This document shows, in pieces, positions 3,087-62,375 of a stretch of 64,000 nucleotides of DNA. Both the position numbers and the translations under genes were made by a program. The stretch covers positions 2,547-66,546 of the forward strand of contig CAZWYM010000002.1 of the NCBI GenBank assembly GCA_964638425.1, given 5' to 3'. How positions within the stretch are numbered: position 1 is the stretch's first letter; the number at the start of each line of letters is the position of its first letter. The DNA comes from an uncultured Candidatus Saccharibacteria bacterium. Its GTDB lineage: Bacteria > Patescibacteriota > Minisyncoccia > Phycocordibacterales > UBA918. A model generated the notes under the pieces. That model had not been told where the DNA came from and ran no database searches. It saw nothing but the letters and a program-made list of their open reading frames with translations.

Positions 3087-3146
3087 ATAGAAAGTTTTAT
3101 CGTATTCAATTACTTAGTCTTCTTCTCTGATTCCTTTTGGAGGGGA

Positions 3147-3235
3147 AGGGTCAAGTTGCTAATTCGCTACGCTTATAAGTAAGCACTTCCTCCCCGGACT
3201 CGCCACTTTTGCATTAGTAATAGCAAAAGTATGGC
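3147..3235 (-). repeat. R1 structured-repeat copy H (sense on the minus strand, 3' of rplE)
   Basis: ttgctaattcgctacgcttataagtaagcacttcctccccggactcgcc-[acttttgc attagtaat agcaaaagt]-atggctccgtctc. Confidence 0.6.
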
Positions 3236-3289
3236 TCCGTCTCTTTCCATTGCCGAACGAGAAACTGTTCTCATTCTAAAAATAGTAAA

Positions 3290-4564: not shown

Positions 4565-4584
4565 ATAAAAATTTTATGAAGTGA

Positions 4585-4851: not shown

Positions 4852-4878
4852 AATAATATGTTTTATAAATACTACTTG

Positions 4879-5073: not shown

Positions 5074-5084
5074 ATTTGTATGTA

Positions 5085-5519: not shown

Positions 5520-5530
5520 ACAAAATTTGA

Positions 5531-6253: not shown

Positions 6254-6271
6254 GGTATTAAATAGTTAAAA

Positions 6272-6595: not shown

Positions 6596-6615
6596 AATTC
6601 AAAATGTGGAACTGA

Positions 6616-6954: not shown

Positions 6955-7278
6955 AAAACAATAAGGCGCAGTTTGCGCATAAAAAGGTTGCTCGATTTGA
7001 TAGAAAACACCCTTCCAACAAAGAAATCTGCTGGAAATGCGTGTTCTATGTGAGAACCTCGTGTAATAACAGGTAACGGCCAGTCTTAAACGAAGTGCCC
7101 ACAGAATCTACTAATTGCGTTGCATCACCTGCCAGGGATCTGCAATCGCGGAGGTTCTGGAACGAGGGCTATAGTACGCGAAACAAGAAAGATTGTCAAT
7201 GACTTACGCTCATACTTTCGCAGAAATAAAAAAAGAACCCGACATTGTCGAGTTCTGTATGCCCTAAGGGCGATTCGA

Positions 7279-8076: not shown

Positions 8077-8126
8077 TTCCTTCTCCTTCTGTGTTAAAGA
8101 CCAAAATCAGCGATTATTATACATTA

Positions 8127-8156
8127 GCATGTGGTTTTGTCAAAAAAACCACATGC
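8127..8156 (-). terminator. hairpin gcatgtggtttt-gtcaaa-aaaaccacatgc downstream of the 8195-8980 gene; a third direct copy of gcatgtggttttgc lies at 8163-8176
   Basis: Perfect 12-bp stem read directly from the sequence. Confidence 0.5.
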
Positions 8157-8194
8157 ATTTCTGCATGTGGTTTTGCTTTAAAGCTAAGAACAAA

Positions 8195-8980: not shown

Positions 8981-9174
8981 TCTACTTCCTTTCAATGAAC
9001 AATATTGAAAATATTATAACATATATTTTGAATAAAGCAAAAATACCCCAAGCGGGGGGTATTTTCTTTATGCATGATTCTTTTAATATACAGCTTGGGT
9101 CTCAAAATCTATTTTGAATAAGATTTTGAGACAGACTCAGAAAATATAATCGCTACGCTCTTTATTTTCTGGCC

Positions 9175-9270
9175 ACATGGTTCCGTCTTGGTTCTCGATA
9201 CGTACCTACCTTGAGGCAGGTACTAGAGAATAAAAAATACCTCGCATATGCGAGGTATTTTTTATTCTAC
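9175..9270 (-). repeat. R2 repeat copy 1 (two tandem hairpins, one a 44-bp palindrome at 9226-9269)
   Basis: About 90% identical to 14679-14793 and 15015-15133: acatggttccgtcttggttctcgatacgtacct..aggcaggtactagagaataaaaaatacctcgcatatgcgaggtattttttattct. Confidence 0.85.
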
Positions 9271-9274
9271 CTAC

Positions 9275-9392
9275 TTCGTCACGAATTGCTAAATAAAATA
9301 GCCACCTTGCGGTGGCTATTTTATTAATCATTCGCGACCCCGCCTCGCGGTGCGCCTCATTTTGAATGAGGCTCACAACGCTCCGGCTTGGC
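9275..9392 (-). repeat. R1 structured-repeat copy G (sense on the minus strand), with an extra hairpin at 9291-9325
   Basis: Contains ...tcgcgaccccgcctcgcgg-[gcctcattttgaatgaggc]-caacgctccggc, homologous to copies C, D and E. Confidence 0.7.
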
Positions 9393-9427
9393 GGACTGAA
9401 AATACATATGTATTTCCCTAACGTCCG

Positions 9428-9617
9428 CCACCCATAATCTTTCCTGGCTTGCGACGGGAAACAATGAATGTGTTTGAGTACTTCTTTGGACTTCGTGTCT
9501 TTTGACCCTTTCCAGTTGGACGTCCTTGCTTTGTTCGAGCATGTCGGTGTCCTCGTGGTGCGCGTCCTTCTCCTCCTCCGTATGGATGGTCTACTGCGTT
9601 TCGTGCACTTCCTCGTG
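9428..9617 (-). pseudogene. duplicated 3' fragment of rplB (last ~62 codons plus stop and 7 nt), no start codon
   Basis: Identical to 15135-15324 except 2 mismatches in ataatct versus attattt. The plus-strand track ORFs 9468-9662 and 15175-15375 translate identically over this stretch. Confidence 0.85.
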
Positions 9618-9636
9618 GGTTCTGTGGTTACGTATT

Positions 9637-11601
9637 TTACTGTAACTTTGCATGCTTCTTGAGATATTCATCAACTGTAATCACAAACTCTGCATGACTC
9701 CACACAAGAGGATCTGTGGAGAGATGCTCTCCGGTATATGGATGAATCTGTTCGGGAAGAATACCACTTGTTGTTGCCCTATCGCATACCCATAGCAAAA
9801 TTTCATGTGCTTTTTCCAAATCTTTTTTTGTTTTTGCCAAACGTATATTGTACCGAGCAATCCAAAGAGTTGTAATGCACCATGCATTTGGAGGCGCGTC
9901 GTTGCTAGTCTTAAAATATCGGTCTCCTTCATATCGCATATACCCTCCAAACGTTGTTGGTACTTTTAGTTTTTCGGTCATGTTTGTAAATGCTAACTGC
10001 ATTTTCTGATCATAAACGTCTAACACCCCGAATACAACTAGTCCAAAGAGACTGCTTATATCAACTGTTCCATCATACACAAGTCCTTTTTTTTCATGGC
10101 GCAAAGACTTAATAAAAGTTCCTGATGAAACATCAAATAGATAGGTTAAAATAGCAATTTTTATATGTTCTGCAATATCTCTATAACGTTTTGCATTATC
10201 GCGTTTTCCTAGGACTGCAGAAAGATCCGCCGCAGCACAGAGCGCTCCATACACCGAAGCGGCTGTGTATGTAGAAGAACCATATTTTTCTTCCCAAAGA
10301 TCGTAAGAATCCTTCGGCAATCCAGTTTCAGACTCCCTATACGTACACATGAAATCGGCTGCTGGTTCAATGAATGAATTATAGAGTGACTCAATAAACT
10401 CTAGATCTTTTGCATATACATAATGCTCTCCAAGCATATACAAAACTGTTGCCGTTTCGTCTTCCTGAATCGGCAATTTGAAAACACCATTTTGCAGCCA
10501 CGGATGCCATGAACTACCAAGAACTCCATCGACACGATACTTATGCATGAGATAACCATCTGTTTCTAACCGATCAGACATAAATGAAAAAAACCGTTGC
10601 GTGACATCAATATGCCCCGCTCGATCAAGTGCACCTGCAGTTATTGCGGCGTCGCGTGGCCAGACGTAGCTATACGTATCTCTCCCTTGGTTTAGGATAT
10701 CAGAATCTGATGAAGCTATGATTCCACCTCGATTATCTGTATGCATACGCATAATTACCAACGATCTTTTATAAAGTTGCTGGATATTTTTTTCGAATAT
10801 AGATAAATTGCGTGGTTCTTTTTCAGTCCACGCCTCCCAATATCGTTCGGTTGAAATCACGATTTCTGATGGTTTTGACTCAAGGATATGTTCGTGAATT
10901 CCATGCGCGTCATGTATTGATTTTGCTGCAACAACCCAGTAATAACATTCTGCACTTTGAGAACCCTTTGCTTCAAAAGTAAGCCCTAGCACAGAATCCA
11001 CCGATCCGTGTTCTATAGGATTTCGAGAAAGTATCCCGTCTTCAGCATCTTTGTACGTCCCCTGTTTTCCTTCAATATTAAAAAGTCCGACGCTATAATC
11101 TATAAACGCTATGTCGTTTATAGTTGCATGAATAAGAAAAGTATTATGCCCCTTATAGTGAACGATAGAACGTACCCGAGGATCATAAAACGCGGTATCT
11201 CCCCGTCTTGACTCTGAGATCCTAAACTCTTGCCCAAAAAAAATCTTTATCTCACGATTATAGTCACGTTCGTTGGTGATGATGACCTTCCGCAAAAAAA
11301 TATTTTTTTCATTGTGTACCACATCAGTAAAATGCAATCGAATTCCTTGTGTAGAGTTATACGCATCAATATCGCTTGATCCGGAAAATTCTGTATAGTT
11401 GATGTTTATGTTCCACGAATCATCGCTAAGCCATTTAATAGTACCGTCCACCCAGACACCTATTCGATGCACATACGAACCGCTTGCTCCACTCACATGA
11501 TTTGAATGCCCAACAAATGGGAAATAGAAATCACGGACTTGTCCTCGTCCATCAAGGCCAATGAGTAGACTGCCGTTTCCAATCGTAATTGCTCGAGACA
11601 T
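9637..11601 (-). CDS. glycoside hydrolase family 15-like (glucoamylase/glucodextranase-type), N-terminal beta-sandwich plus (alpha/alpha)6 domain
   Basis: 654 aa; YSYVWPRDAA motif and GH15 architecture. Confidence 0.65.
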   Translation of the reverse strand: MSRAITIGNGSLLIGLDGRGQVRDFYFPFVGHSNHVSGASGSYVHRIGVWVDGTIKWLSDDSWNININYTEFSGSSDIDAYNSTQGIRLHFTDVVHNEKNIFLRKVIITNERDYNREIKIFFGQEFRISESRRGDTAFYDPRVRSIVHYKGHNTFLIHATINDIAFIDYSVGLFNIEGKQGTYKDAEDGILSRNPIEHGSVDSVLGLTFEAKGSQSAECYYWVVAAKSIHDAHGIHEHILESKPSEIVISTERYWEAWTEKEPRNLSIFEKNIQQLYKRSLVIMRMHTDNRGGIIASSDSDILNQGRDTYSYVWPRDAAITAGALDRAGHIDVTQRFFSFMSDRLETDGYLMHKYRVDGVLGSSWHPWLQNGVFKLPIQEDETATVLYMLGEHYVYAKDLEFIESLYNSFIEPAADFMCTYRESETGLPKDSYDLWEEKYGSSTYTAASVYGALCAAADLSAVLGKRDNAKRYRDIAEHIKIAILTYLFDVSSGTFIKSLRHEKKGLVYDGTVDISSLFGLVVFGVLDVYDQKMQLAFTNMTEKLKVPTTFGGYMRYEGDRYFKTSNDAPPNAWCITTLWIARYNIRLAKTKKDLEKAHEILLWVCDRATTSGILPEQIHPYTGEHLSTDPLVWSHAEFVITVDEYLKKHAKLQ

Positions 11602-11606
11602 GGTGC

Positions 11607-11975
11607 TTAAATGATATACAGCTGCAATCGTGAAGCAACAACAGCATGTGCAGTACGTGGTTTCTTTGATTTTCGGAGTGTTGATGCAAGTTCCACATCC
11701 TCGAGGACATGCTCAATCCAATCAGCAAAATCATTTTTTTCTTTTGAGACGTGATGTGCAAAAATTGATTCATCCATTGATTCAAGTGCGTCTTTGAGCT
11801 CAATAAGATTTGAAAGAATGCGACCGTCATTGACCCAAAAAGACTCTTCGAGTTTTGTATGTACGAGAGGTTTTTTTGTTTTTGGCGTCGATACTTTTTT
11901 GCGAGCCACTTTTTGCATAACTGTAGCTACTCTTGTAAGTGCTTTTTTTACTGGGGCTATTTTTTTTGTTTTCAT
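11607..11975 (-). CDS. hypothetical protein with a basic N-terminus (122 aa) inside the alpha-glucan cassette
   Basis: ORF tightly packed between the GH15 and GH57 genes, 6-nt and 22-nt gaps. Confidence 0.4.
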   Translation of the reverse strand: MKTKKIAPVKKALTRVATVMQKVARKKVSTPKTKKPLVHTKLEESFWVNDGRILSNLIELKDALESMDESIFAHHVSKEKNDFADWIEHVLEDVELASTLRKSKKPRTAHAVVASRLQLYII

Positions 11976-11996
11976 AAGAACTAAATGAACTGAGTG

Positions 11997-13331
11997 TTAA
12001 AACGTACGAGACCGCATACGTTTGCGAATAAGTTGGATGCGTACAAAGAGTTTTTGAATGATCGTGTGCAACCATCTCCACACACGAGCATATAGACTTT
12101 TTTCTACTAATTCCAACTTTTCTTTTTTCCTGCGCAAAGTTTGCGATACTCTTAATTGTAAATCACTTACGGCATTCATGAAAGCGATATACGCATCATA
12201 CGGGGATTCGTACGGACTAAAGTACGCATGGACATCTCCATCTTGGAACCATTTGGTACACATATAATAAAAATGATCTGAGGTTTGCAACTTTCTCCAT
12301 GTCTCAACCAGTGTTGTATCTCCAGTACGTAAGACGTTTGCTTCCATGGCATAAATTGTAGAAATAGCGTCTCGTTGAATATCATTACCTACCCAAGCAG
12401 TAAGATCTCGGTCAGTATCTGCCCAAGTCAGAATGTGTGGCACATCAAATTCACCAACATGGTCGTGTGCCTGCACTGTCTCACTCGCAGTCCTAAAACC
12501 CGTATCTCCGTGTGCAAGAATTTTTTCAGGGAGTGCGTCGAGGAAACGGAAAATTCCTGTATCTTCCCACTGATGTTCACCAAACGTCTCAAAGTCCATG
12601 AAAAGATTGATTGTTTGTCCGTCTCCATGATGTGCATGAAGCCATGTAGCATAGGTCTCTGCTCTGAGTGGATACCCTTCCCACCCTTTGTTGCCAAAGC
12701 GAAAGGCAATATCATCAGAAAGTTTATAGTTCTTTAGTAGAACTTTAAGAGTTGAGCACCCTTTTGGTTGATAGACATAATTTGGACTTCGCCATCCAAG
12801 AACAGGATCCCACCCTTCAGCCATAATACCGAGATACCCATTATCTTCACACCATTTTGCAAGTGCGTTCGTATATGAAAGTTCGGTGTTGCGAAATACC
12901 CGAGGTGTATATCCAAATAGTTTTTGAATTTTTTGCTTATGTAGTTCAACCTGACTTTCAAATTCGGATCGAGAATAAAAAAATGCGAGCGAATGATAGT
13001 AGGTATCGGCGAGTATCTCTACCCTTCCTGTTGCGACAAGAGCCTGAAATGCCTGAAGTACTTCAGGCATGTAGGTTTCAAACTGATCAAGTACCGTCCC
13101 AGAAAACGAAAGTGAAAAGCGAAATTCAGGATGCCTTGCAAGAAGTTCTCCAAGGATTTTGGTCGTAGGAATATAAGACTTTGCTGCCACTTTTCTAAGC
13201 ACTTTTTCATTATTAAGTTCAGTCTCGTCATTCGCATTAAAATATTCCGCATCATTTCCAATATCAAAAACCTTATACCGCTTAATTCGATGCGGTTGGT
13301 GAACATGGAAATAGGGGCAAATAGTAAGCAT
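11997..13331 (-). CDS. glycoside hydrolase family 57-like (alpha-amylase/branching-enzyme type)
   Basis: 444 aa; N-terminal ...ICPYFHVHQPHR (GH57 region-I HQP motif), overall GH57-like. Confidence 0.65.
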   Translation of the reverse strand: MLTICPYFHVHQPHRIKRYKVFDIGNDAEYFNANDETELNNEKVLRKVAAKSYIPTTKILGELLARHPEFRFSLSFSGTVLDQFETYMPEVLQAFQALVATGRVEILADTYYHSLAFFYSRSEFESQVELHKQKIQKLFGYTPRVFRNTELSYTNALAKWCEDNGYLGIMAEGWDPVLGWRSPNYVYQPKGCSTLKVLLKNYKLSDDIAFRFGNKGWEGYPLRAETYATWLHAHHGDGQTINLFMDFETFGEHQWEDTGIFRFLDALPEKILAHGDTGFRTASETVQAHDHVGEFDVPHILTWADTDRDLTAWVGNDIQRDAISTIYAMEANVLRTGDTTLVETWRKLQTSDHFYYMCTKWFQDGDVHAYFSPYESPYDAYIAFMNAVSDLQLRVSQTLRRKKEKLELVEKSLYARVWRWLHTIIQKLFVRIQLIRKRMRSRTF

Positions 13332-13339
13332 AAAATATA

Positions 13340-14557
13340 CTACCTCTTAAAGAACATCAAAGCCAATAATTTCCGGTAGAGAATTACTACCTTATCAGCT
13401 GCTCGTCGCCATGTAAGTCTATGTAGCTCCTTTCTTCCTTCATCAGCGAGTTGCTTATTCAAAACTGGATAGGCAAGCGCTGCAATAATTTTATTTGCCA
13501 TATCATCGATATCCCAAAAATCAACCTTAAGTGCATGTGTAAGCACTTCCGCAACGCCAGATTGCTTTGAAATCAGTACGGGGGTACCATGTTGTAGCGA
13601 TTCGAGAGGGACAAGTCCAAACGGCTCAGACACTGACGGCATAACAAGGAGATCTGCTGCCTGATACATCCGGTCACGGTCTTCGTCCCACAGCGCTCCT
13701 GCAAAAATAACATTTTTTGACAGCCCGAGAGTGCCAACCAAATGCATGATTTGATGTTCCATGTCTCCCCACCCAGAAATAACAAAGATGATGCTGGAAT
13801 CATAGTCTACAACTTTTCTCGCCGCATGTATAAAATAGTCGACACCTTTCTGAATCGTTATGCGACCGTTATAAAAAACTATTTTTTTTCCTTGGATTTT
13901 TAGTTCACTGAGCACTGGCGGAAAAACGGGCGGATCATACTGCTTGATTCCATTATGCACAACAGCTACCTTCTCCGGGTCAGTACCATACTTCTTAATG
14001 ACAAGATCTCTTGTGTAATTGCTAATTGCGACCACTGAGTCTGCCACATTGAACGCATATCGTTCTACAGCATAAATCTCAGAATCTACATTGTCGGAGC
14101 CAGCTTGATCAAATGATGTTGCATGCACATGGAGTACTAAAGGTTTCCCTGTTGCGAGTTTTGCAGCAACCCCAGCTAAATAGGATGTCCAGTCATGTGC
14201 ATGGATGATATCGAACTGTTCAAGAAACGCTATCTCATACGCCGCATCGGCATATCGATACACTTCATCTATTATTTTCCTAGAGAAACGTATCCGTTCA
14301 CCACTTGGTGAAAAATATTCTATAAACGACTGGGAGTGTTGGTAGGGGAGAAGTGATGAAGGAAATACGTGTATTTTTGCTGGAGTTTTGTTAGCGAAAA
14401 TAAATTTGTGACTACCGATTGTTGGCTGTTCGCGAGGCAACACAAAAATAATTTCGAGTCCAAGCTCTATGAGTTCCTCAGTAAGCCCGTGGCATGCCAC
14501 ACCGAGTCCTCCATTTTTCATGGGTGGATAATCCCATCCAAATGTCAATATTCTCAT
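13340..14557 (-). CDS. GT-B glycosyltransferase, glycogen/alpha-glucan synthase-like (GT4/GT5)
   Basis: 405 aa; MRILTFGWDYPPMKNGGLGVACHGLTEEL resembles the GlgA KxGGL-type N-terminus. C-terminal half is GT1-domain-like. Confidence 0.65.
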   Translation of the reverse strand: MRILTFGWDYPPMKNGGLGVACHGLTEELIELGLEIIFVLPREQPTIGSHKFIFANKTPAKIHVFPSSLLPYQHSQSFIEYFSPSGERIRFSRKIIDEVYRYADAAYEIAFLEQFDIIHAHDWTSYLAGVAAKLATGKPLVLHVHATSFDQAGSDNVDSEIYAVERYAFNVADSVVAISNYTRDLVIKKYGTDPEKVAVVHNGIKQYDPPVFPPVLSELKIQGKKIVFYNGRITIQKGVDYFIHAARKVVDYDSSIIFVISGWGDMEHQIMHLVGTLGLSKNVIFAGALWDEDRDRMYQAADLLVMPSVSEPFGLVPLESLQHGTPVLISKQSGVAEVLTHALKVDFWDIDDMANKIIAALAYPVLNKQLADEGRKELHRLTWRRAADKVVILYRKLLALMFFKR

Positions 14558-14678
14558 GTATATGTCAGAACATTCTGCACAAATAAGTTTTGCACAATGC
14601 TACTCAAATATTATTATACAGACAAATCGTTATATGAGAAATAATTGCATTCTGGCATACTGATAAGCAAAAACATGA

Positions 14679-14793
14679 CTCCGCTCCGTGCGACATGGTT
14701 CCGTCTTGGTTCTCGATACGTACCTGCCTCAAGGCAGGTACTAGAGAATAAAAAATACCTCGCATATGCGAGGTATTTTTTATTCTCTATCGA
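14679..14793 (-). repeat. R2 repeat copy 2 (46-bp perfect palindrome at 14744-14788)
   Basis: See R2 copy 1. Ends with tattctctatcga, which equals the last codons plus stop of rplB. Confidence 0.85.
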
Positions 14794-14799
14794 CCACGT

Positions 14800-14895
14800 C
14801 ACGAGTTACTAAATTCGCTTCGCTCATTAAGTACTCGCGACCCCACCTCGCTCGTTTTTGTCTCCTTATGGTCGACAAAACATCGCTCCGGTTTG
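14800..14895 (-). repeat. R1 structured-repeat copy C (sense on the minus strand)
   Basis: The reverse complement reads aaccggagcgatg-[ttttgtc gaccataaggaga gacaaaa]-aacgagcgag-gtggggtcgcgagta-cttaatgagcgaagcgaatttag. Confidence 0.8.
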
Positions 14896-15014
14896 TAAGC
14901 AGGTCGGGAGCAAAGCCTTTTGTATCTACCGACTTCGTCACTGGTTTCTAAGTAAAATAATTGCAGAGCAATCATTTCGCTAAGAACCATCGACCCCGAC
15001 TCACCTGTCGTACT

Positions 15015-15133
15015 CGCTCCGCTCCGTGCGACATGGTTCCGTCTTGGTTCTCGATACGTAACTGCCTCAAGGCAGTTACTAGAGAATAAAAAATACCTCA
15101 CACATGTGAGGTATTTTTTATTCTCTATCGAGA
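15015..15133 (-). repeat. R2 repeat copy 3, immediately 3' of rplB; its palindrome at 15081-15126 overlaps the rplB TAG stop at 15125-15127
   Basis: Same structure as copies 1 and 2, with compensatory substitutions: cctcGcaTatgCgagg becomes cctcAcaCatgTgagg, and gtacCtgcc..ggcagGtac becomes gtaActgcc..ggcagTtac. Confidence 0.85.
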
Positions 15134-15985
15134 ACCACCCATTATTTTTCCTGGCTTGCGACGGGAAACAATGAATGTGTTTGAGTACTTCTTTGGACTT
15201 CGTGTCTTTTGACCCTTTCCAGTTGGACGTCCTTGCTTTGTTCGAGCATGTCGGTGTCCTCGTGGTGCGCGTCCTTCTCCTCCTCCGTATGGATGGTCTA
15301 CTGCGTTTCGTGCACTTCCTCGTGTCTTTGGTCGCACACCTCGTTGTCGTGCGCGCCCTGCCTTACCGAGAGTAATCAAACGATATTCTTCGTTTGAAAC
15401 TTCACCGATAGTTGCCCAACAGGTGCTGAGAATTCGTCGAATTTCAGATGAAGGCATCTTCACGAGTGTGTACCCTGCGTCTTGTGCAACAACTTCAGCC
15501 TTATTTCCTGCAGACCGCGCGATTCGTGCACCTGCTCCTGGCTTAAGCTCGATTGCAAAAACAAAGGTACCTACTGGGATATTCCCAAGCGGTAGACGAT
15601 TTCCTGACTTTGGCTTTGCTGTTTCTGAAACAATAAATTCATCTCCCTTTACCATCCCCTTTGGTGCGAGAACGTATCTTCGTTCACCATCCTTAAAGAG
15701 AACGAGTGCGATGAATCCTGAACGGAATGGATCGTATTCAATTGATTCTACAATCGCAGGAATATCCTTTTTATTGTAGACAAAATCTACTTCACGGTAT
15801 GTACGCTTATGTCCACCTCCTCGGTAGAGATTTGTAGTACGTCCTGTGCTATTTCGTCCTCCAGTACTTCTTCGTCCTTGTGTAAGACTCTTGAGTGGGG
15901 CGTTTTTCTTTGTCGTGAGGACTTCTCGGTATGACACTACGGTCATTCCACGTCGTCCCGCTGATGTTGGTTTATATTTTTTCAC
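15125..15985 (-). CDS. rplB: 50S ribosomal protein L2; apparent GTG start
   Basis: 286 aa; ...GRNSTGRTTNLYRGGGHKRTYR...HPYGGGEGR... are L2 signatures. Confidence 0.9.
   Translation of the reverse strand: MKKYKPTSAGRRGMTVVSYREVLTTKKNAPLKSLTQGRRSTGGRNSTGRTTNLYRGGGHKRTYREVDFVYNKKDIPAIVESIEYDPFRSGFIALVLFKDGERRYVLAPKGMVKGDEFIVSETAKPKSGNRLPLGNIPVGTFVFAIELKPGAGARIARSAGNKAEVVAQDAGYTLVKMPSSEIRRILSTCWATIGEVSNEEYRLITLGKAGRARQRGVRPKTRGSARNAVDHPYGGGEGRAPRGHRHARTKQGRPTGKGQKTRSPKKYSNTFIVSRRKPGKIMGGSR
15135..15324 (-). repeat. native rplB 3' segment that forms the 190-bp direct repeat with 9428-9617
   Basis: Direct comparison of the two stretches. Confidence 0.9.
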
Positions 15986-16005
15986 GTTATTATCATTACT
16001 AACTA

Positions 16006-16377
16006 TTAAACCAACTCAATGCGATCTCCTTTTTTGAGATACACATACGCTTTTCGTAAACCGCTTTCCATCATATCTCGACCGCGTGAACGCGACATGG
16101 AGTGGCGAGGTTGTTTGTTCACAATGTGTACCCGAACTGGTGTCACATTATAAAGTGCTTTGATTGCATCACGTACTTCAAACTTTGTTGCCCCCTTCTT
16201 GATTTCAAATGTATACACATTCTTATCTGAGAGAAGAGCAGCTTTTTCTGTAATACGTGGCTTGATGATGACCGAAGTGACACTTGTGGTGTTGATTCGT
16301 GCAGGCTTTGAAGCCTTCACTACCGCAACATCAGCAGAGGTGTTTTCTGGGGTATCTTTCTTTCCAAAAATTCCCAT
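16006..16377 (-). CDS. rplW: 50S ribosomal protein L23
   Basis: 123 aa; ...KNVYTFEIKKGATKFEVRDAIKALYNVTPVRVHIVN. Confidence 0.85.
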   Translation of the reverse strand: MGIFGKKDTPENTSADVAVVKASKPARINTTSVTSVIIKPRITEKAALLSDKNVYTFEIKKGATKFEVRDAIKALYNVTPVRVHIVNKQPRHSMSRSRGRDMMESGLRKAYVYLKKGDRIELV

Positions 16378-16378
16378 A

Positions 16379-17113
16379 TTACTTATTGACCGTCATAGCC
16401 TTACGTGCCGTTTTGGTCACTACTCTCGTTTCAAGAATTTTGAGTGATTCCTCAGGCTTTGCGACTACAACATACTTATAGGTGAGTAATTCAACTGGAT
16501 TTACATCCTTAACATTCACTACGTGGATGTTACCGAAATTGCGGAAGCTTAATTCTGCATTCTCGTTTCGTCCATCAAGGATAACGAGTGTTGCATTTGT
16601 CTTCTTTGTTGCAATTTCTTTCTTCCCTGTTATTGCGCTCATAGAAGCAATAAACTTTTGCGCATCACTTGTCTTTGGCTTTGTAAAATCAAGTGTGTCG
16701 ACGAAGATGATAGCGTCATGAGCAAACTTTTGTGAAAGTACACAAGCGAGTGCCTTTGAACGCACGTTCTTGTTTATCTTTCGTGTATAGTCTCTCTCAT
16801 TTCGTGGTCCGTGAGCAACACCTCCTCCACTCCAAATTGGTGAACGAGATGAACCATGTCGAGCACGTCCTGTACCCTTTTGCTTCCATGGCTTTTTTCC
16901 TCCTCCGCGTACCTCGCTTCGGTTCTTAGTATGCGCTGTGTTTGAGCGGGCATTACCCTGCATACTTACCACAACGTCATGTACGAGGTCAGCATTCCAT
17001 GCAACTCCGAAGATTTTTTCTGAGAGCGCAATGTGAGAAACTTCTTTTCCTGCTTGCGAATATACATTCGCTTCAAGAGTGATAGGTGCTTTCGCTTTTA
17101 TTTTCTTTTCCAT
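16379..17113 (-). CDS. rplD: 50S ribosomal protein L4
   Basis: 244 aa; ...RGGGKKPWKQKGTGRARHGSSRSPIWSGGGVAHGP. Confidence 0.9.
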   Translation of the reverse strand: MEKKIKAKAPITLEANVYSQAGKEVSHIALSEKIFGVAWNADLVHDVVVSMQGNARSNTAHTKNRSEVRGGGKKPWKQKGTGRARHGSSRSPIWSGGGVAHGPRNERDYTRKINKNVRSKALACVLSQKFAHDAIIFVDTLDFTKPKTSDAQKFIASMSAITGKKEIATKKTNATLVILDGRNENAELSFRNFGNIHVVNVKDVNPVELLTYKYVVVAKPEESLKILETRVVTKTARKAMTVNK

Positions 17114-17116
17114 ATG

Positions 17117-17737
17117 CTATACGCTACGTACTTCTACTAAGGTTCCTCGTCGACCTGGTACCGCACCCCGTACGAGAAGAATGTTTTCTTCCTTATTGAC
17201 TGCGATAACCTTTAAATTTTTAACCGTGATTCGGTCAGCTCCCATACGTCCTGCCATACGTGTACCTTTGAATACACGCTGTGGTCCAGTTGCTCCAATA
17301 GAACCTGGTGTACGAAGCGTGTGCTTCATACCGTGACTTCCAGGACCTCCACGGAAACCGTGACGCTTAACTCCTCCCTGGAATCCCTTTCCTTTTGAGA
17401 TTGCTGAGACGAGTACGAGATCACCTTCTGCGAAGATTGATACGTCAATTGATGCATCTTTCTCGAGTGTTGGTAATGTCTCCTTTACTCCTGTACGTGC
17501 TCGGAACTCTACAACGTGCTTGAATGCACCGCCGAGGTGTCCTGTTTGTGCTTTGTTGACTCGATGAGCCTTTTGCTCACCTGAAGCAATCTGAACTGCT
17601 TCGTATCCATCCTTCTCCTTTGTCTTCACCTGCGTTACTTTCGCAGGAGTAACTCGGAGAATAGTCACTGGATGCGCTACACCCTGAGCATCAAATACTT
17701 GGGTCATGCGCTCTTTTGTTCCGAGTATAAACTTCAT
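17117..17737 (-). CDS. rplC: 50S ribosomal protein L3
   Basis: 206 aa; ...KGKGFQGGVKRHGFRGGPGSHG... Confidence 0.9.
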   Translation of the reverse strand: MKFILGTKERMTQVFDAQGVAHPVTILRVTPAKVTQVKTKEKDGYEAVQIASGEQKAHRVNKAQTGHLGGAFKHVVEFRARTGVKETLPTLEKDASIDVSIFAEGDLVLVSAISKGKGFQGGVKRHGFRGGPGSHGMKHTLRTPGSIGATGPQRVFKGTRMAGRMGADRITVKNLKVIAVNKEENILLVRGAVPGRRGTLVEVRSV

Positions 17738-17933
17738 CTAATTCGAAACTAACTAATAAATTGCTTTCATGACCGAGGTAATAACAAAACCGCGATTTTT
17801 ACATACGCAGACACAAGGTCCGCATATAAAAATCGCGGTTTTGTGCCCATTGGTCTCTCCCCTGTGGAGGTACGTAGGTCTTTAAAAAGCTAGGAGGAGT
17901 ATACCTTGATTTGCCAAAATTGCAAATTGGTCT

Positions 17934-18776
17934 TCATTTAATAAAAATTCCGGTGCGAAGTTCTTCCATTGCCATTTGAAGCTCTTCGTCAGTGTTCATG
18001 ACGATTGGACCAGCCCAGCTGATACTTTCATGAAGTGGCTTCCCTCCGATGAGGAGAAACCGTGCGCCGTCTTTGCCCCCTGCACAGGTGAAATCAAAAT
18101 CATTGGTAAGGAGACCAATCTCACCTTCCCCGAGCCACAGCTCTGTTCTATCGTCACGGACTGATACACGCCCCTCAAATACGTACACAAAAAATGTATC
18201 TTCTCGGTTTGTTGGTAACGAGAATTGCGTGCGTTCTCCGAGTGTTATGTCGAGATATGTCGGAGCTACCATAAGATCTTGGACAGGACCTTTAATACCG
18301 TGGTATTCACCCGCAATAACCCTCACTTCGCTCCCATCGCCATGCACCGTCTTAATCTCGGTACTCTTAATTTCTTGGTAGCGTGGTGCCATCATTTTGT
18401 GTGTTGCGGGAAGATTGACCCAAAGTTGGAAACCCTGAACCCCTTCTTCATGCACAACCGGCATCTCTTCATGAATAAGCCCACTTCCGGCAGTCATCCA
18501 CTGAACTTCGCCAGTCTTAATACTCCCTTCATTTCCCATACTGTCTTTATGGTGTACCTCTCCTTTCAATATATAGGTAACCGTTTCAATACCGCGGTGA
18601 GGGTGCTTAGGAAATCCGTGCATATACGCATCCGCGTCAGTGTTACTAAAATCATCAAAAAGGAGAAACGGGTCAAAGAGTTTTGCGAGTTCAGGTCCAC
18701 CAAATCCACGATTGAGATGTACTCCAGCACCTTCGAGAGTTGGTGTGGTTTTGTATGTCTTCAGTATTTTCCTCAT
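17934..18776 (-). CDS. pirin-family cupin protein (quercetin 2,3-dioxygenase-like), inserted between rplC and rpsJ
   Basis: 280 aa; GFPKHPHRGIETVTYILKGEVHHKDSMGN carries the pirin HxH...E...H metal site. Confidence 0.75.
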   Translation of the reverse strand: MRKILKTYKTTPTLEGAGVHLNRGFGGPELAKLFDPFLLFDDFSNTDADAYMHGFPKHPHRGIETVTYILKGEVHHKDSMGNEGSIKTGEVQWMTAGSGLIHEEMPVVHEEGVQGFQLWVNLPATHKMMAPRYQEIKSTEIKTVHGDGSEVRVIAGEYHGIKGPVQDLMVAPTYLDITLGERTQFSLPTNREDTFFVYVFEGRVSVRDDRTELWLGEGEIGLLTNDFDFTCAGGKDGARFLLIGGKPLHESISWAGPIVMNTDEELQMAMEELRTGIFIK

Positions 18777-18872
18777 AACAGTAGGACTACTATAGCAAAT
18801 ATTCTCACATTGAGTGCATTAAGCCCTTGTGGTATGCTCCGCGTAGATATATTTGTACCTGAGGAGGTCATC

Positions 18873-19136
18873 ATGCGTATTTCAAGATCAAGAATCATAC
18901 TCTTACTTGGTGCTGTCATGTCATCGACAATGACGATACCAATTTTTGAATTACAATTAGAAAGAGAAGCGACGCGAATGCGGTCATGTGGTATTAAACT
19001 ACCAAAACGACTTCATTCTGTTCCAAAAGCATTTCAAAACAGATTGCTCTCCCTTGGAAACAAGCGGAGACATTCGGGGCATCGTGAAAGTAATGCACGT
19101 ATGTCGACACGTGGTAAACGTGGCGGGCGTAGGTAA
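18873..19136 (+). CDS. small protein (87 aa) with an Arg/Lys-rich C-terminus
   Basis: Strong SD gaggagg at 18861-18867, 5 nt before the ATG at 18873. Followed by two intrinsic-terminator hairpins. Confidence 0.4.
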   Translation: MRISRSRIILLLGAVMSSTMTIPIFELQLEREATRMRSCGIKLPKRLHSVPKAFQNRLLSLGNKRRHSGHRESNARMSTRGKRGGRR

Positions 19137-19140
19137 TATA

Positions 19141-19169
19141 AAATCCGTACACAATGTGTACGGATTTTT
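19141..19169. terminator. hairpin aaatccgtacaca-atg-tgtacggattttt (bidirectional)
   Basis: Perfect 13-bp stem plus T tract, 3' of both rpsJ (-) and the small ORF (+). Confidence 0.6.
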
Positions 19170-19183
19170 GTGTGTTACACAAC

Positions 19184-19212
19184 AAAACCCGCAGGCGAAG
19201 CCTGCGGGTTTT
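19184..19212. terminator. hairpin aaaacccgcaggc-gaa-gcctgcgggtttt
   Basis: Perfect GC-rich stem flanked by A and T tracts. Confidence 0.65.
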
Positions 19213-19239
19213 GTATACACACTGATGACAACTAATAAC

Positions 19240-19602
19240 CTACATCATCTTCACGTCAATCGAAACTCCAGATGGAAGTGAAAGGTTTGTGAGTGCTTCA
19301 ATTACTTTTGCACCCGGATTCATAATATCGATAACACGCTTGTGCATTCGCATTTCGAACTGTTCTCGCGCATCCTTGTAGACGAATGACGAGCGGTTCA
19401 CCGTGTATTTCTTGATTTCTGTAGGAAGCGGGATAGGACCGATAACCTTTGCATCGAAACGCAACGCGGTATCAATTATCTGCTTCACAGAAGAATCGAG
19501 GATTTTGTGCTCATACGCACGCACTCGAATCCGGAGCTTCTGGATTTCTCCAGAAACATCTTTCTTCACTTTCTTTGGTTCAGCTTTTGCTTTAGTTGTC
19601 AT
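19240..19602 (-). CDS. rpsJ: 30S ribosomal protein S10
   Basis: 120 aa; ...KLRIRVRAYEHKILDSSVKQIIDTALRFDAKVIGPIPLPT. Confidence 0.9.
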   Translation of the reverse strand: MTTKAKAEPKKVKKDVSGEIQKLRIRVRAYEHKILDSSVKQIIDTALRFDAKVIGPIPLPTEIKKYTVNRSSFVYKDAREQFEMRMHKRVIDIMNPGAKVIEALTNLSLPSGVSIDVKMM

Positions 19603-21627: not shown

Positions 21628-21649
21628 CTAGGCTTCCTCAATATCTTTC

Positions 21650-21745
21650 AGCGTCAGGTTTCTAAACTCACCACGTTCGTTAAGAACCTCCTGCCCGGCC
21701 TCACGGTTTCGTCTCCTTGCGGTCGACGAAACATCGTTCCGGCTT
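21650..21745 (-). repeat. R1 structured-repeat copy D (sense on the minus strand, 3' of fusA)
   Basis: The reverse complement reads agccggaacgatg-[tttcgtc gaccgcaaggaga gacgaaa]-ccgtgag-gccgggcaggaggtt-cttaacgaacgtggtgagtttagaaacctgacg. Confidence 0.8.
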
Positions 21746-21888
21746 TTGTCAAGGACTGAAGAAGCTTACGCTTCTTCTTCAATATCCTTCCCTCCTTACA
21801 GGAGCAGTACACCTTGTGGATATTTTGTTTCGTTAGGATTCACAAAATACCTCACAAGCTCGGTAAAAGATATATCGAAGCAATAACT

Positions 21889-21916
21889 AAAAATGCACCC
21901 TCTCGGGTGCATTTTT
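21889..21916 (-). terminator. hairpin aaaaatgcaccc-tctc-gggtgcattttt immediately 3' of fusA
   Basis: Perfect stem with A/T tracts, 3 nt from the fusA stop. Confidence 0.65.
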
Positions 21917-21918
21917 AG

Positions 21919-33296: not shown

Positions 33297-33303
33297 CTTC
33301 GAT

Positions 33304-34077: not shown

Positions 34078-34250
34078 AGCGTCAGGTTTGTAATTCGCTA
34101 CGCTCATATTCCGACTTACAGTCGCAGTACACCTTTCGCAGAAATTGCTCAAGGTCTTGCGAAGCTCAAAGTATTCGCTTCTCACCTCCCCGGTCTCATT
34201 CATTTCGCCATTATGAATAGGCGAAATATCATTCCGACTCATAGTCGATA
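34078..34250 (-). repeat. R1 structured-repeat copy F (longer variant, sense on the minus strand, 3' of recJ)
   Basis: cgtcaggtttgtaattcgctacgctcat ... ctcacctccccggtctc-[atttcgcc attatgaatag ggcgaaat]-atcattccgactcat. Confidence 0.65.
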
Positions 34251-36480: not shown

Positions 36481-36486
36481 TATTTT

Positions 36487-51987: not shown

Positions 51988-52590
51988 ATGCAATCAAAAG
52001 AATCACAAATAAATAGCTACCTCGTCCCAATGGTTATCGAAAAGACCCAGGCTGGAGAACGTGCTTTCGACATATTTTCTCGACTCCTCAAAGAACGTAT
52101 CATTTTCGTTACTGGAGGTATAGATGACCACATGGCAAATCTTATTGTTGCGCAACTTCTCTTCCTTGAAGCTGAAGACCCAAAAAAGGATATTTTCATG
52201 TATGTTAATTCCCCAGGAGGTTCTGTAAGTGCAGGACTTGGTATTGTCGACACTATGAATCACATCAAGCCTGATGTCGCTACTGTTTGTGTTGGTCTCG
52301 CTGCATCAATGGGTTCTATCATCCTCTCACAGGGAGCGAAAGGAAAGCGAAGTATCCTGCCTAATGCAGAAGTTATGATTCACCAACCATGGGGAGGAAC
52401 ACAGGGCCAAGCGACTGATATTGAAATTACCGCTCGCCATATTCTCCGTACACGAGATACCCTCAACAAAATGCTCGCTAAGGCAGCAGGTAAGCCACTT
52501 GCGCAAATTGAAAAAGACACTGACCGAGATTTCTTCATGACTGCTGAAGAAGCAAAGAAATATGGCTTAGTCGATACTATTCTAAAATAG
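51988..52590 (+). CDS. clpP: ATP-dependent Clp protease proteolytic subunit
   Basis: ...[18 protein letters not shown]...AASMGS...MIHQP... The Ser-His-Asp triad context is present. Start trimmed to the ATG at 51988. Confidence 0.9.
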
Positions 52591-52600
52591 TATCGACTAA

Positions 52601-52695
52601 GAGCCGGAGCGATGTGAACCCTATTAATAATGGGTGAACCAGCGAGGCCGGGGAGAAACCACTTATGAACGAAGTGAATTAGTGAGTTGACCCTG
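52601..52695 (+). ncRNA. R1 structured-repeat copy A (plus sense, 3' of clpP); putative ncRNA or 3'UTR element
   Basis: gagccggagcgatgtga-[accc tattaataat gggt]-gaaccagcgag-gccggggagaaacc-acttatgaacgaagtgaattag. It is flanked by the clpP stop-overlapping palindrome (52559-52600) and by the terminator at 52746-52775. Confidence 0.6.
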
Positions 52696-52745
52696 GTCGA
52701 TACCATCCTTAAGTAGTCTATGCCTTTTTAAGCTCAAACAACGTC

Positions 52746-55128: not shown

Positions 55129-55337
55129 ATATCCACATCTACTCCACATATTTCAATTTTTATAACTAGTGATACAATAATGGAGTAGCGGAGGTATTAA
55201 CTTGGTTTCATGTACACCAAGTCAACGTTACATACAAAGAGGTATAGAATGTTTAGTTCTATGTCTCACCACAACAAAAGCCCCACGCGAGGGGCTTTTG
55301 TGTTGTATAAAATTAGAAATTTTATACAACACAAAAG

Positions 55338-55430
55338 AAACGAGCGATGTGAGGGACTATTCATAATGTCCCGAACCAGCGAGTTCGGGTAGGTAAATCT
55401 TATGAGCGAAGCGAATTAGATTTGGACGCT
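55338..55430 (+). ncRNA. R1 structured-repeat copy B (plus sense, 3' of hup), sandwiched between two long hairpins
   Basis: aaacgagcgatgtga-[gggac tattcataat gtccc]-gaaccagcgag-ttcgggtaggtaaat-cttatgagcgaagcgaattag. Stem nucleotides are compensatory relative to copy A. Confidence 0.6.
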
Positions 55431-55616
55431 TTGTGTTTTAGAGTGATTCAATATCACTCTAAAACACAAAAGCCGACCTTGTCAGATGTTTTTCCGCAAA
55501 GCAGGAAAAAGATCAACAAGGTGTACCGTCCCTGTAAGGGAATTTTGTGTTGGGGGCTTGCGCAGGTAGACTCCCCTTGATACGCTCAACTAAGGTATAC
55601 ACTACGAGGAGTTCTT

Positions 55617-61991: not shown

Positions 61992-62281
61992 GTCGCTTCA
62001 TGTGGAACTATATAACAGAAGATACATTCATGCCAGTGTTTCACGTGAAACAATAACAAATATAATATATTGCGATATAATCGTTGATCTGTATGTTATT
62101 AGCCATTTTTTAAGGACATATTTATTAAAATTTTTGTCCTTTATACACATATCAACTCGTTTATCCCCAGTTATCCACCATGTGGATTTCTAGTAGAGGA
62201 TTTGTCTTTTATGGGGTAGGGGGATCGAAAGCTTACTTGAACAAAATCGAAACCTGACGGTTACTAATAACCAGTACTTGG

Positions 62282-62375
62282 TGTCAGGTTTCTAAGTTCG
62301 TTACACTCACTAAGAACCTCCTACCCGACCTCGCGGTTTCGCCATAAATTATAGGCGAAACATCGCTCCGGTTCA
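62282..62375 (-). repeat. R1 structured-repeat copy E (sense on the minus strand, 3' of tRNA-Gly-GCC), with an extra 3' hairpin at 62249-62290
   Basis: The reverse complement reads aaccggagcgatg-[tttcgcc tataatttatg ggcgaaa]-ccgcgag-gtcgggtaggaggtt-cttagtgagtgtaacgaacttagaaacctgaca. Confidence 0.8.

Follow-up and report, generated by a model that had tools for sequence, protein, structure and literature searches.

The window, i.e., the whole 64-kb stretch of DNA that was analysed, belongs to a Patescibacteria (Paceibacteria/Kaiserbacteria-like) genome and carries the ribosomal protein gene rplB on its minus strand, and a long palindrome overlaps the stop codon of this gene. The palindrome is part of a repeat, R2, which occurs again further downstream. 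An earlier note took R2 for the native terminator of rplB, copied twice together with the end of the gene. The question raised by this locus is whether R2 is such a local terminator or one part of a larger unit with another origin.

Three copies of the R2 repeat

The repeat of 115 nt was found in three copies, i.e., copy a (9161-9275), copy b (14679-14793), and copy c (15017-15131). Compared with the middle copy b, identity was 84% for copy a and 96% for copy c. A 26-mer and a 17-mer of the repeat were matched in the 64 kb at these three sites only (chance expectation 0 and 0.4), and related cores are dispersed beyond them. The palindrome is perfect in copy b with arms of 24+24 nt, and the arms are 21+21 nt in copy a and 23+23 nt around a 2-nt centre in copy c. 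The palindrome that the earlier note had described in three copies is real, with slightly longer arms, and the second hairpin of 9 bp adjoins it in every copy (Table 1).

Copies b and c are unlike at exactly 5 of the 115 positions. Four of these differences form two compensated pairs, i.e., G-C to A-T in the palindrome and C-G to A-T in the second hairpin, and the fifth lies at the palindrome centre. When five random substitutions were simulated, two or more compensated pairs arose by chance with p = 3.7e-5, which bears out the paired changes reported for both stems. Sequencing error, named in the note as a possible refutation, is ruled out for the second hairpin of copy c, whose variant also stands unchanged in two other species (L019 and L038). 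In copy a, the loop of this hairpin is exactly inverted relative to b and c. The second hairpin of copy a has one G-U pair on the minus (sense) strand and A-C on the other strand (-14.7 vs -10.0 kcal/mol).

Misassembly is a well-known risk at palindromes and repeats, and contigs of independent short-read assemblies end at these repeats. It is nevertheless hardly credible that the repeats or their differences are artefacts of assembly or sequencing. Independent assemblies from other runs match the window exactly at 4400-9204, 9588-14722, and 15295-19405, base for base at all unique junctions. Since they agree up to the repeat edges, the repeat junctions are not an assembly artefact. The variant of copy c in other species, and the recurrence of the architecture in dozens of unrelated assemblies, also argue against this explanation. 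The exact R2 26-mer gave zero matches in the JGI metagenomes.

The palindrome, named T, has a core stem UACCUCGC/GCGAGGUA with the loop AUAU (UGUG in copy c), followed by UUUUUUAUU. As to the folding energy that the note proposed to check, the predicted energy of the full hairpin is -31 to -32.5 kcal/mol on either strand (z = -10 to -12). A stable G+C stem-loop stands directly before a U-tract, and the overlap with the rplB stop codon is as described, so that T has the anatomy of a bidirectional intrinsic terminator. Because the G+C core stem lies between an A-tract and a U-tract, T would most likely stop transcription of rplB and any convergent transcription. The palindromes were not called by a simple terminator scan, whose rules (longest stem, loop of 3-8 nt, T-run right after) exclude them by construction; the longest stem takes in the A/U tracts of T. 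Permissive Rfam scans of 8900-9700, of 14540-15200, and of the long-form unit of L019 gave weak, sub-threshold matches to terminator-type attenuators only.

Two details of the earlier note were amended. A 23-bp A/U-rich stem was considered there unusually long, and it is not so in this DNA: perfect palindromes with arms of 12 nt or more number 28 in the window, compared with 0 in almost every shuffle, and the arms of several measure 19-27 nt. The motif ctctatcga was read as the last three codons plus stop of rplB; it comprises the stop, CGA as the last codon with one further base, and two bases of the 3'-UTR. In copy a, nothing but the TAG of this motif is shared.

A composite unit at the end of rplB

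R2 is the 5' (front) module of a composite unit of roughly 230 nt, and R1 is its conserved core with two domains. The R2 module is a three-way junction in which the stem P0 encloses T and the second hairpin, H2. P0 is formed by the last rplB codons (X) and their complement (X'), which is contained in R2 and was overlooked in the earlier note. In the minimum-energy fold of 14925-15145 (minus strand), P0 was placed around T and H2, and Pa/P2 and P1 followed (-98.4 kcal/mol, z = -9.7). The X:X' run at the window rplB is 12 nt. In P1, a bulged A is conserved, a U-U mismatch is present, and the loop varies in length between about 10 and 45 nt; this fits an attC-type folded site and is not specific to it. 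The GA-flanked loop motif is GAGCGAAGCGAA.

Table 1. Positions of the R2 and R1 elements, their dispersed relatives, and neighbouring features in the window.
Feature	Position	Strand	Basis
Copy after rplE (L5); displaced native end LPLQKESEKKTK* behind the core	3146..3244	-	Covariance model
R2a: T 9227-9268, H2 9202-9223 (loop inverted), X' 9189-9200, then core without P2	9161..9275	-	
Core a (R1); terminator-like hairpin 9292-9325 inside the P1 loop	9276..9390	-	Covariance model, 79.3 bits
rplB' stop, small hairpin, own complement GTCCGCC of the rplB' end GGCGGAC	9391..9420	-	Read from sequence
rplB': duplicate of the last 204 nt of rplB	9414..9617	-	178 nt identical, last 25 nt differ
Alpha-glucan gene block: GT4/GT5 glycogen-synthase-like, GH57, 122-aa protein, GH15 glucoamylase-like	9637..14557	-	
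TTCTCA-16-TATAAT, resembling a promoter; lies between R2b and the first gene of the cassette	14613..14640	-	Consensus match only
R2b: T 14742-14789, H2 14720-14741, X' 14707-14718; the core that follows is cut off after its first ~29 nt	14679..14793	-	Sequence comparison
Core b (R1)	14796..14895	-	Covariance model, 83.3 bits
Degenerate 5' module of next unit: gene-end-like GAAGTCGG-TAG, decayed H2, decayed complement	14896..14934	-	Read from sequence; intact counterpart in L003
Core c (R1): short stem Pa, hairpin P2, GGGG linker, long hairpin P1 with bulged A	14935..15046	-	Covariance model, 78.9 bits
X'(c): reverse complement of the rplB end, 3' strand of P0	15045..15056	-	Fold and own-species X:X' run
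H2(c): 9-bp hairpin GTAACTGCC-TTGA-GGCAGTTAC	15058..15079	-	Identical in L019, L038; covaries in other species
T(c): palindrome opening with the rplB stop (TAG 15125-15127), putative bidirectional intrinsic terminator	15080..15127	.	-31.0 kcal/mol on either strand, z about -10
X: last rplB codons (..GGT TCT CGA) and TA of the stop, 5' strand of P0	15126..15137	-	Minimum-energy pairing with 15045-15056
Copy between fusA and tuf	21649..21746	-	Covariance model
Partly decayed copy after recJ	34151..34241	-	Covariance model
Copy on the clpP 3' end, core 52600-52695	52566..52720	+	Covariance model
Copy downstream of the HU gene: 20-bp palindrome, then core	55295..55431	+	Covariance model
Copy after tRNA-Gly(GCC); CACAAAAC and GTTTTGTG either side of the tRNA terminator	62279..62375	-	Covariance model

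The order of elements given in the earlier note is correct, i.e., rplB, R2, partial R1, R1, R2, cassette, rplB fragment, R1, and R2. The upstream flank of R2b, GTGGT-CGATAG, equals the rplB end minus one codon. R2a has no matching X upstream, and its core remnant resembles those of L005 and L089. The duplicated gene end rplB' encodes KIMGGGR*, compared with KIMGGSR* at the C-terminus of rplB. A diversity-generating retroelement was rejected as the source of this duplicate: rplB and rplB' differ in a cluster within the last 25 nt, with no specificity for adenine, and no reverse transcriptase was found.

The unit of R2 and R1 was found after rplB in about 20 related species. In 18 of them, a complement to the last rplB codons of that very species is found 52-63 nt past the stop. 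The X:X' runs had a mean of 10.9 nt within the own species and 7.1 nt in mismatched species pairs, with 11 different X sequences. A palindrome starting exactly at the stop codon was present in 17 of the 22 loci with a core, compared with 3 of the 41 loci without one.

These data bear on the reading that local rounds of duplication or insertion made two further copies of the native rplB terminator, together with a few bases of the gene end, and that the stability of the stem was selected. It is quite unlikely, although the stop overlap, the terminator anatomy, the flank retained by R2b, the duplicated 204-nt rplB fragment, and the restriction of the three R2 copies of the window to the rplB locus all agree with it. 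T, H2, X', and the core follow rplB in the related species with entirely unlike sequences, and homologous units follow other genes and tRNAs. Hence the module did not originate as a local feature of the rplB locus. X' and the start of the core, both contained in R2, would be needless for a terminator. Two close relatives (L089 and L090) have the same glucan block between rplB and rpsS, but they carry a single different unit, without duplicates and without rplB'. What stands of the claim is the overlap with the stop and the terminator anatomy. R2 as a free-standing terminator does not stand, because R2+R1 is also placed after rplB in other genomes and, with stems specific to the respective gene, after rplE, clpP, fusA, recJ, and many tRNAs.

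The stems P0, T, and H2 of 18 species contain 697 Watson-Crick and 3 G-U pairs, i.e., 99% Watson-Crick pairing despite unlike sequences, and P0 and T form one continuous inverted repeat that is broken only by H2. This pairing, together with the inverted loop of copy a, makes arm-to-arm templating at the DNA level an equally good cause of the paired changes. The earlier claim that the structure is under selection holds in so far as it is conserved far beyond chance, but the paired changes alone are no proof of selection at the RNA level.

Intrastrand template switching and hairpin-templated repair could, if taken as the whole cause, copy changes between arms, flip loops, and extend palindromes into the coding end, with no selection on structure and with a core that adjoins by chance. 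The many long perfect palindromes of the window also agree with such dynamics. As a complete account it is very improbable, because it leaves unexplained the constant geometry (X' at a fixed distance range past the stop, the same core next), the anchoring at the stop only where a core is present, and the direct repeats behind the core that are described below. Palindrome dynamics are better regarded as a mechanism inside the preferred explanation, i.e., a miniature integrating element, than as a full alternative to it.

Dispersed copies and the origin of the unit

The core was searched with nhmmer and with a covariance model built from alignment A1. The model found 56 cores in 1.26 Mb of related loci. 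Nine of them lie within the window, i.e., about one per 7 kb. In RNAalifold analysis of the core, 14 of 17 pairs showed changes on both sides. In the alignment of the 56 cores, 94.3% of cells pair, compared with 67% in shuffles and 28-44% in slid controls, and double-change cells numbered 236 vs 66 in shuffles. Rfam 15 at gathering threshold gave four tRNAs only in the whole window and no family for the unit. This covariation marks the core as a strong candidate RNA (or single-strand DNA) family that would be new and is absent from Rfam.

The units form a multi-copy family that is widespread in Patescibacteria, and they are always co-oriented with the upstream gene. In the clpP copy, the last codons and the stop lie inside a 16-bp perfect stem, and a second LVDTILK* is found downstream with 6 synonymous differences. 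At both clpP and rplE, the displaced end behind the core still codes for the same residues, with synonymous differences. The direct repeats at protein genes measure 24 nt at clpP, 15-35 nt at rplE, and 115 and 204 nt at the window rplB; in L002, a perfect repeat of 32 nt (gene end, stop, and terminator) stands on either side of the unit. Translational bypass or splicing to the displaced end was rejected. Several displaced ends (L012, L020, and L058) are decayed, so recent insertion accounts for the coding sense retained elsewhere.

A metagenome scan with the type-2 core motif gave at least 120 loci, with 106 usable copies among the matches listed. For 61 of these 106 listed copies (58%), a co-oriented tRNA lies upstream within 260 nt, and the tRNAs represent 12 amino-acid types. 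Exact direct repeats of at least 18 nt, which begin a few bases from the TTGAC end of the core, were found in 29 of the 106. In the cases listed, the tRNA repeats start in the T-loop (CGATTCC..) and reach the 3' end of the tRNA. Among the matches listed, tandem arrays have repeats of 39-45 nt.

Tandem arrays of units were also found after rplB in L005, L021, L031, and L040, and the second unit of L005 opens with the rplB end of another lineage. The presence of the unit at rplE is patchy (8 of 44 loci, plus two remnants), and in 80 relatives rplB and rpsS are separated by gaps that measure 105 nt at the least and more than 6.8 kb at the most. Both direct repeats of the target 3' end with a reconstituted target, as in integrative elements, and many dispersed extragenic hairpin copies, as in REP/BIME or MITEs, were thus found. 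Fixed family-wide terminal inverted repeats and a fixed-length target duplication were absent; the flanks are target-specific and the repeats measure 8-204 nt.

The unit could be considered a vertically inherited functional RNA, e.g., a structured 3'-UTR, a small RNA derived from it, or an RNase III processing site. It would then be selected for its RNA fold and not mobile, with the gene-end duplicates as by-products. The strong covariation, the bulges, the purine-rich loops, some G-U pairs, and the constant orientation of the units point in this direction. So do the sense strand, which folds better in 43 of 48 cores, the G-U pair kept on the sense strand in copy a, and the perfect stems of 20 or more bp, which resemble RNase III substrates. 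G-U outnumbers A-C by 22 vs 12 in the cores and 18 vs 13 in P0, counts by which the strand is not fixed. We regard this explanation as unlikely. Target repeats starting at T-loops, tandem arrays, patchy presence, and gene ends of a foreign lineage are hard to derive from it, and the near absence of G-U pairs in P0, T, and H2 is atypical of selection on RNA. Moreover, with efficient termination at T, transcripts from the rplB promoter would seldom extend into X' and the core, which fits uneasily with an RNA role for P0.

The best-supported explanation, which we hold with moderate confidence, is that R2 is the front module of a gene-end unit that is a non-autonomous miniature integrating element, or the stacked remains of such elements. 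We infer that the direct repeats and the duplicated gene ends are the footprint of site-specific integration that regenerates the 3' end of the target. The unit would give the gene a replacement 3' end, i.e., last codons, stop, and terminator, and the displaced native end would stay behind the core as a direct repeat. The element may enter through recombination inside the gene-end sequence, and would probably do so as a small circle. Stacks of units, with the newest nearest the gene, would arise from repeated entry or from unequal recombination.

At rplB, R2c would head the unit attached to the gene, and R2b and R2a would be paralogous modules at the head of two truncated units downstream. R2b and R2a would bracket the degenerate unit and the block with the glucan genes, the rplB fragment, and unit a. 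X' of R2b and R2a matches the rplB end and not their own upstream flanks, so an extra assumption is required, i.e., that recent duplication or gene conversion has kept the two modules nearly identical. The inverted copy X' is also not accounted for by the att sites of ordinary integrases.

Recombinase domains (integrase, transposase, reverse transcriptase) were not found in the gap ORFs of the window by Pfam, PHROGs, and NCBIfam. The 25 most frequent Pfam families of 97 gap ORFs in the relatives were ordinary housekeeping genes, with no recombinase among them. An enzyme acting in trans might be encoded elsewhere in the genome. Two ORFs of 265 aa at 7279-8995 had no homologues in 80 related loci. 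Neither an empty and filled pair within one species nor a circular junction was seen, so mobility is deduced from footprints only. A phage origin was rejected: in IMG/VR, one core pattern gave two chance matches that failed the covariance model, and a second gave none.

A more specific version is possible but doubtful. The elements, of about 170-250 nt and without genes, might move as a small and fully folded single-stranded circle (DNA or RNA-derived) in which X:X' rebuilds a double-stranded target end, in the way that CTX-phi attP(+) does so for dif. A host recombinase might then insert the circle into tRNA T-loops and into the last codons of essential genes and so restore the gene. Stacked units could serve as portable homology that breaks the S10 operon after rplB and moves the glucan block. 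No description of such an element was found in the literature.

The genomes of Patescibacteria (CPR) are small and are thought to be poor in repeats. Here, a folded unit stands at the density given above on essential genes and tRNAs, where it would rewrite last codons and supply terminators. It may explain why the junction of rplB and rpsS, universal elsewhere, is interrupted in this clade, and why the C-terminal tails of L2 and L5 are highly variable. It may also explain why assemblies of these genomes break at those ribosomal protein genes that serve as markers in phylogeny. If integration by a target-mimicking hairpin is true, it would be a new and very compact route to site-specific insertion.

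Comparison with known systems

T resembles bidirectional intrinsic terminators in its G+C stem, its U-tract with a matching A-tract, its place just past the stop, and its equal stability on both strands. It differs from them in that it takes in the stop codon, is nested in the last-codon stem P0, and is always followed by H2, X', and the core.

Group IIC introns are also found directly downstream of intrinsic terminators, and they also pair with the upstream target. Group II introns, including IIC, were rejected, because the units lack the 5' GUGYG, domain V, a reverse transcriptase, and an Rfam intron match, and are far too small; they also have target duplications on their flanks, and introns produce none. 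A group I intron was rejected as well: there is no Rfam match and no U-G at the supposed splice site, and target duplication is not a feature of introns.

REP/BIME, ERIC, Correia, and RUP elements are short, multi-copy, and hairpin-rich, and lie after genes, often on terminators, as the units do. Compared with REP and MITEs, the units have no fixed terminal inverted repeats or fixed target duplication, their ends are target-specific, and the last codons are replaced.

As with integron attC and CTX-phi attP(+), tandem arrays occur, and the conservation of structure over sequence, a conserved bulged base, and a variable terminal loop would fit this type of site without being specific to it. The X:X' stem may re-form the target site as a duplex within one strand, a proposed parallel to attP(+). 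By inspection of the A1/A2 alignment consensus, no attC core sites (RYYYAAC/GTTRRRY) or dif-like 11-6-11 sites were recognised, and a link of the units to IntI or Xer would be conjectural.

Integrative elements at tRNAs and gene 3' ends, i.e., tyrosine-integrase islands and CIMEs, differ from the units in several points. The units are only about 170-250 nt, have no integrase nearby, carry the inverted target copy X', show RNA-like covariation in the core, and reach about one copy per 7 kb in the window. Shared with these elements are direct repeats of the target 3' end, which start at the T-loop for tRNAs, the rebuilding of the target by element sequence, tandem accretion, and patchy distribution. 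Overall, the unit appears to be a miniature integrating element that has not been described before, and in these ultra-small bacteria it is attached to housekeeping genes and tRNAs at their 3' ends.

R2 repeats and the unit that they begin

The R2 repeat, which contains a palindrome (T) and a second hairpin (H2), was recognized in three copies by sequence comparison (table). The earlier note's three-copy repeat with palindromes is thus real, with a repeated unit of 115 nt and the 9-bp H2 adjoining T in every copy. A 26-mer and a 17-mer from the unit occurred only at these three places in 64 kb, i.e., against chance expectations of 0 and 0.4. Independent short-read contigs of other sequencing runs were identical to the window over 9588-14722, 4400-9204, and 15295-19405, ending at the repeats, so the unique junctions are genuine. 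The bases ..ctctatcga had been read as three rplB codons plus stop; more exactly, they hold the stop, the last codon plus one base, and two untranslated bases.

On the minus strand, the order is X (end of rplB), T, H2, X' (its complement), and the start of the adjoining R1 repeat, here called the core. The first bases of T are the stop codon. In the minimum-energy fold of 14925-15145(-), the X:X' stem (P0) closes a junction holding T and H2, followed by two more domains (-98.4 kcal/mol, z = -9.7). Because the fold reproduces this architecture, R2 and R1 are one unit. In 18 species where rplB is followed by a core, the complement of the species' own last codons was found 52-63 nt beyond the stop, across 11 different X sequences. 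Complementary X:X' runs averaged 10.9 nt within species versus 7.1 nt in mismatched species pairs. The palindrome started exactly at the stop in 17 of 22 loci with a core versus 3 of 41 without one. The H2 stem was kept at 9 bp across many different sequences, and the predicted pairs of the 18 modules comprised 697 Watson-Crick pairs, three G-U pairs, and three single mismatches.

T is built like a bidirectional intrinsic terminator and is equally stable on either strand, from which we infer transcription termination at this site. A simple terminator scan did not call T, owing to the scan's own rules. The earlier reading of R2 was partly upheld, in that T is a putative terminator at the rplB stop, duplicated and conserved in structure. 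The object is larger: R2 forms the front part of a unit that is conserved and dispersed and that replaces gene ends.

Positions of features in the window
Feature	Position	Strand	Description
R2a	9161-9275		unit, 115 nt
R2b	14679-14793		unit, 115 nt
R2c	15017-15131		unit, 115 nt
Palindrome, copy a	9227-9268		arms 21+21 nt
Palindrome, copy b	14742-14789		arms 24+24 nt, perfect
Palindrome, copy c	15080-15127		arms 23+23 nt, 2-nt centre
X	15137-15126	minus	last rplB codons and TA of stop
X'	15056-15045	minus	exact complement of X
rplB	15125-15985	minus	S10 operon
rpsS	6616-6954	minus	S10 operon
rplC	17117-17737
Pirin gene	17934-18776	minus	Pirin and Pirin_C domains
rpsJ	19240-19602
ORFs of ~265 aa	7279-8076, 8195-8995	minus	between R2a and rpsS
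Loop motif, examples	14840-14855, 15000-15015
Second conserved module	21795-21861, 55886-55952	plus	CTTACAGnnnCAGTACACCTTGnGG, hairpin, CCnCnCAAG
Direct repeats, 35 nt	33303-33337, 34028-34062		perfect
Decayed core	34151-34241		after recJ
Long palindromes, examples	21882-21923, 36442-36488, 54396-54438, 55090-55131, 57489-57535, 61072-61127

The core and the cause of the paired changes

An alignment of 31 core copies gave a 3-bp stem (Pa), a hairpin with a covarying base (P2), and a long hairpin with a bulged A (P1), with changes on both sides in 14 of 17 pairs. By covariance model, 56 copies were found in 1.26 Mb of the window and its relatives. The nine in the window lie after rplE, rplB (two), its duplicated end rplB', fusA, recJ, clpP, the HU gene, and tRNA-Gly. 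On the model alignment, 94.3% of cells paired, versus 67% when shuffled and 28-44% when slid, and double-change cells numbered 236 versus 66; these figures lean high, since the sequences are related and were aligned to fit the structure. No Rfam family matched, and the literature searched gave no description of such an element.

The loop motif GA-[GCGnAGC]-GAA (GAGCGAAGCGAA, GGAGCGGAGCGAG) recurs in the P1 loop of some cores and in the P2 loop of others, and CTATTCCTAATG is common to type-2 P2 loops. These loop motifs are possible protein-binding or tertiary-contact candidates. The second conserved module is the counterpart of the middle domain in a longer unit form (loci L003, L019, and L027), and the short core may have arisen by deletion from a unit of ~300 nt.

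Of the 115 positions, R2b and R2c disagree at five: four make two compensated pairs and one is the palindrome centre. The simulated probability of at least two compensated pairs from five random substitutions was 3.7e-5. The paired changes are far beyond chance, and selection at the RNA level is not their sole possible cause. The H2 loops of copies b and c are exactly inverted in copy a. Long perfect palindromes are a genome-wide trait: in 64 kb, 28 had arms of 12 nt or more, with several reaching 19-27 nt, versus none in nearly all shuffles. Along with the near-pure Watson-Crick module, these features are compatible with DNA-level templating of one arm by the other. Perfect palindromes that resemble terminators, with 19-27-nt arms, reach well past the A/U tracts and are common across the window; this unusual style suggests active palindrome homogenisation. 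The sense strand is favoured by its better fold in 43 of 48 cores and by the copy-a hairpin, which has G-U on the minus strand versus A-C on the plus strand (-14.7 versus -10.0 kcal/mol). Counts of G-U versus A-C gave no decision on strand.

The rplB-rpsS gap

The closest rplB relatives were Paceibacteria/Kaiserbacteria MAGs (Patescibacteria), with at most 91% amino-acid identity. In the window, rplB and rpsS lie 8.2 kb apart. Between them are the repeats and four alpha-glucan genes (GT4/5, GH57, a 122-aa protein, and GH15), along with two orphan ORFs and rplB', which duplicates 204 nt of the rplB end. Nearest to rplB is unit c, made up of X, T, H2, X', and core c, followed by a decayed module and core b, and then by R2b, which has the rplB end minus one codon before it and a core stopping after ~29 nt. 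Next come a promoter-like site, the glucan genes, and rplB', with 178 nt identical to rplB and its own different last codons. A small hairpin with matching complement precedes core a, and R2a, with a core lacking P2, is last. In R2b and R2a, X' matches the present rplB end rather than the flanks of these two copies. All three R2 copies are therefore most readily explained by recent duplication or gene conversion of a single module. Two related loci (L089 and L090) likewise have the glucan block between rplB and rpsS, each with a single unit unlike those of the window and without rplB', indicating that units turn over faster than the gene block.

The broken rplB-rpsS junction is the rule in the clade. 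Among 80 related genomes, the gap ranged from 105 to 6834 nt where rpsS lay inside the stored flank of up to 10 kb; in the remaining relatives rpsS was absent from that flank, and many contigs end directly after rplB. The gap genes are ordinary and vary from lineage to lineage, among them FtsK, SSB, EF-P, S6, sigma factors, and RecA. An ORF of ~105 aa with a weak match to DUF2103 (predicted metal-binding) lies on the opposite strand of the gap in 28 related loci, e.g., L010:11593-11913 (-), and is missing from the window. The two ~265-aa ORFs, seen in several independent sequencing runs, had no match in Pfam, PHROGs, or NCBIfam and no homologue among the 80 related rplB loci. The pirin gene between rpsJ and rplC is a further break in the normally contiguous S10 operon; independent contigs (L087 and L088) have it as well. 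In one MAG, JAWKSP01, the rplB end with two units was found both on a 1.6-kb contig and within a 623-kb contig (L043 and L044), which shows that the repeats produce duplicate marker-gene fragments in bins.

Footprints at gene ends

Behind the core, the end of the target gene is found a second time. At clpP, the duplicate of the last seven codons and stop shows six differences, all of them synonymous, and the native terminator is next. At rplE in eight genomes, (T)LPLQK and the native tail follow ..TGAC, intact in some and decayed in others. At locus L002, the unit is flanked by a perfect 32-nt repeat that comprises gene end, stop, and terminator, and at locus L005 the second unit starts with an rplB end from a different lineage. 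Units are patchy among relatives, e.g., in 8 of 44 rplE loci, plus two remnants. The type-2 core motif was found at at least 120 loci in a metagenome scan. Among the matches listed, 61 of 106 usable copies lie just 3' of a co-oriented tRNA gene (12 amino-acid types), and in 29 of the 106 an exact repeat of 18 nt or longer begins no more than a few bases from the core end. In the cases listed in full, the repeat extends from the T-loop to the tRNA 3' end. Tandem arrays among these copies have repeats of 39-45 nt. These footprints are classic marks of site-specific insertion at a gene 3' end with the end regenerated.

The L2 C-terminal tails vary widely in close relatives (MGGKR, MGGGR, MGGSR, MANSGK, MRSGK, MTSRK, and others; loci L002-L081), and L5 tails continue after LPLQK with 0-20 varied residues; such variety is expected if gene ends are repeatedly replaced. 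Near recJ, the 35-nt repeats, each a terminator hairpin (TCTCTCAACCGCATCACTCTGTGATGCGGTTTTTT), are ~725 nt apart with a small ORF between them and directly adjoin the decayed core. This arrangement resembles a further insertion with a duplicated terminator at its borders.

The unit is probably a miniature integrating element. These elements are tiny, and no recombinase was found in domain searches of the window's gap ORFs or among the 25 most frequent families in 97 gap ORFs of relatives. Ordinary att sites have no counterpart to the inverted copy X'. The unit thus lacks the recombinase typical of elements integrating at gene 3' ends, and its consensus shows none of the core sites of folded single-strand sites. 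In its working, it resembles both more clearly than it belongs to any known family.
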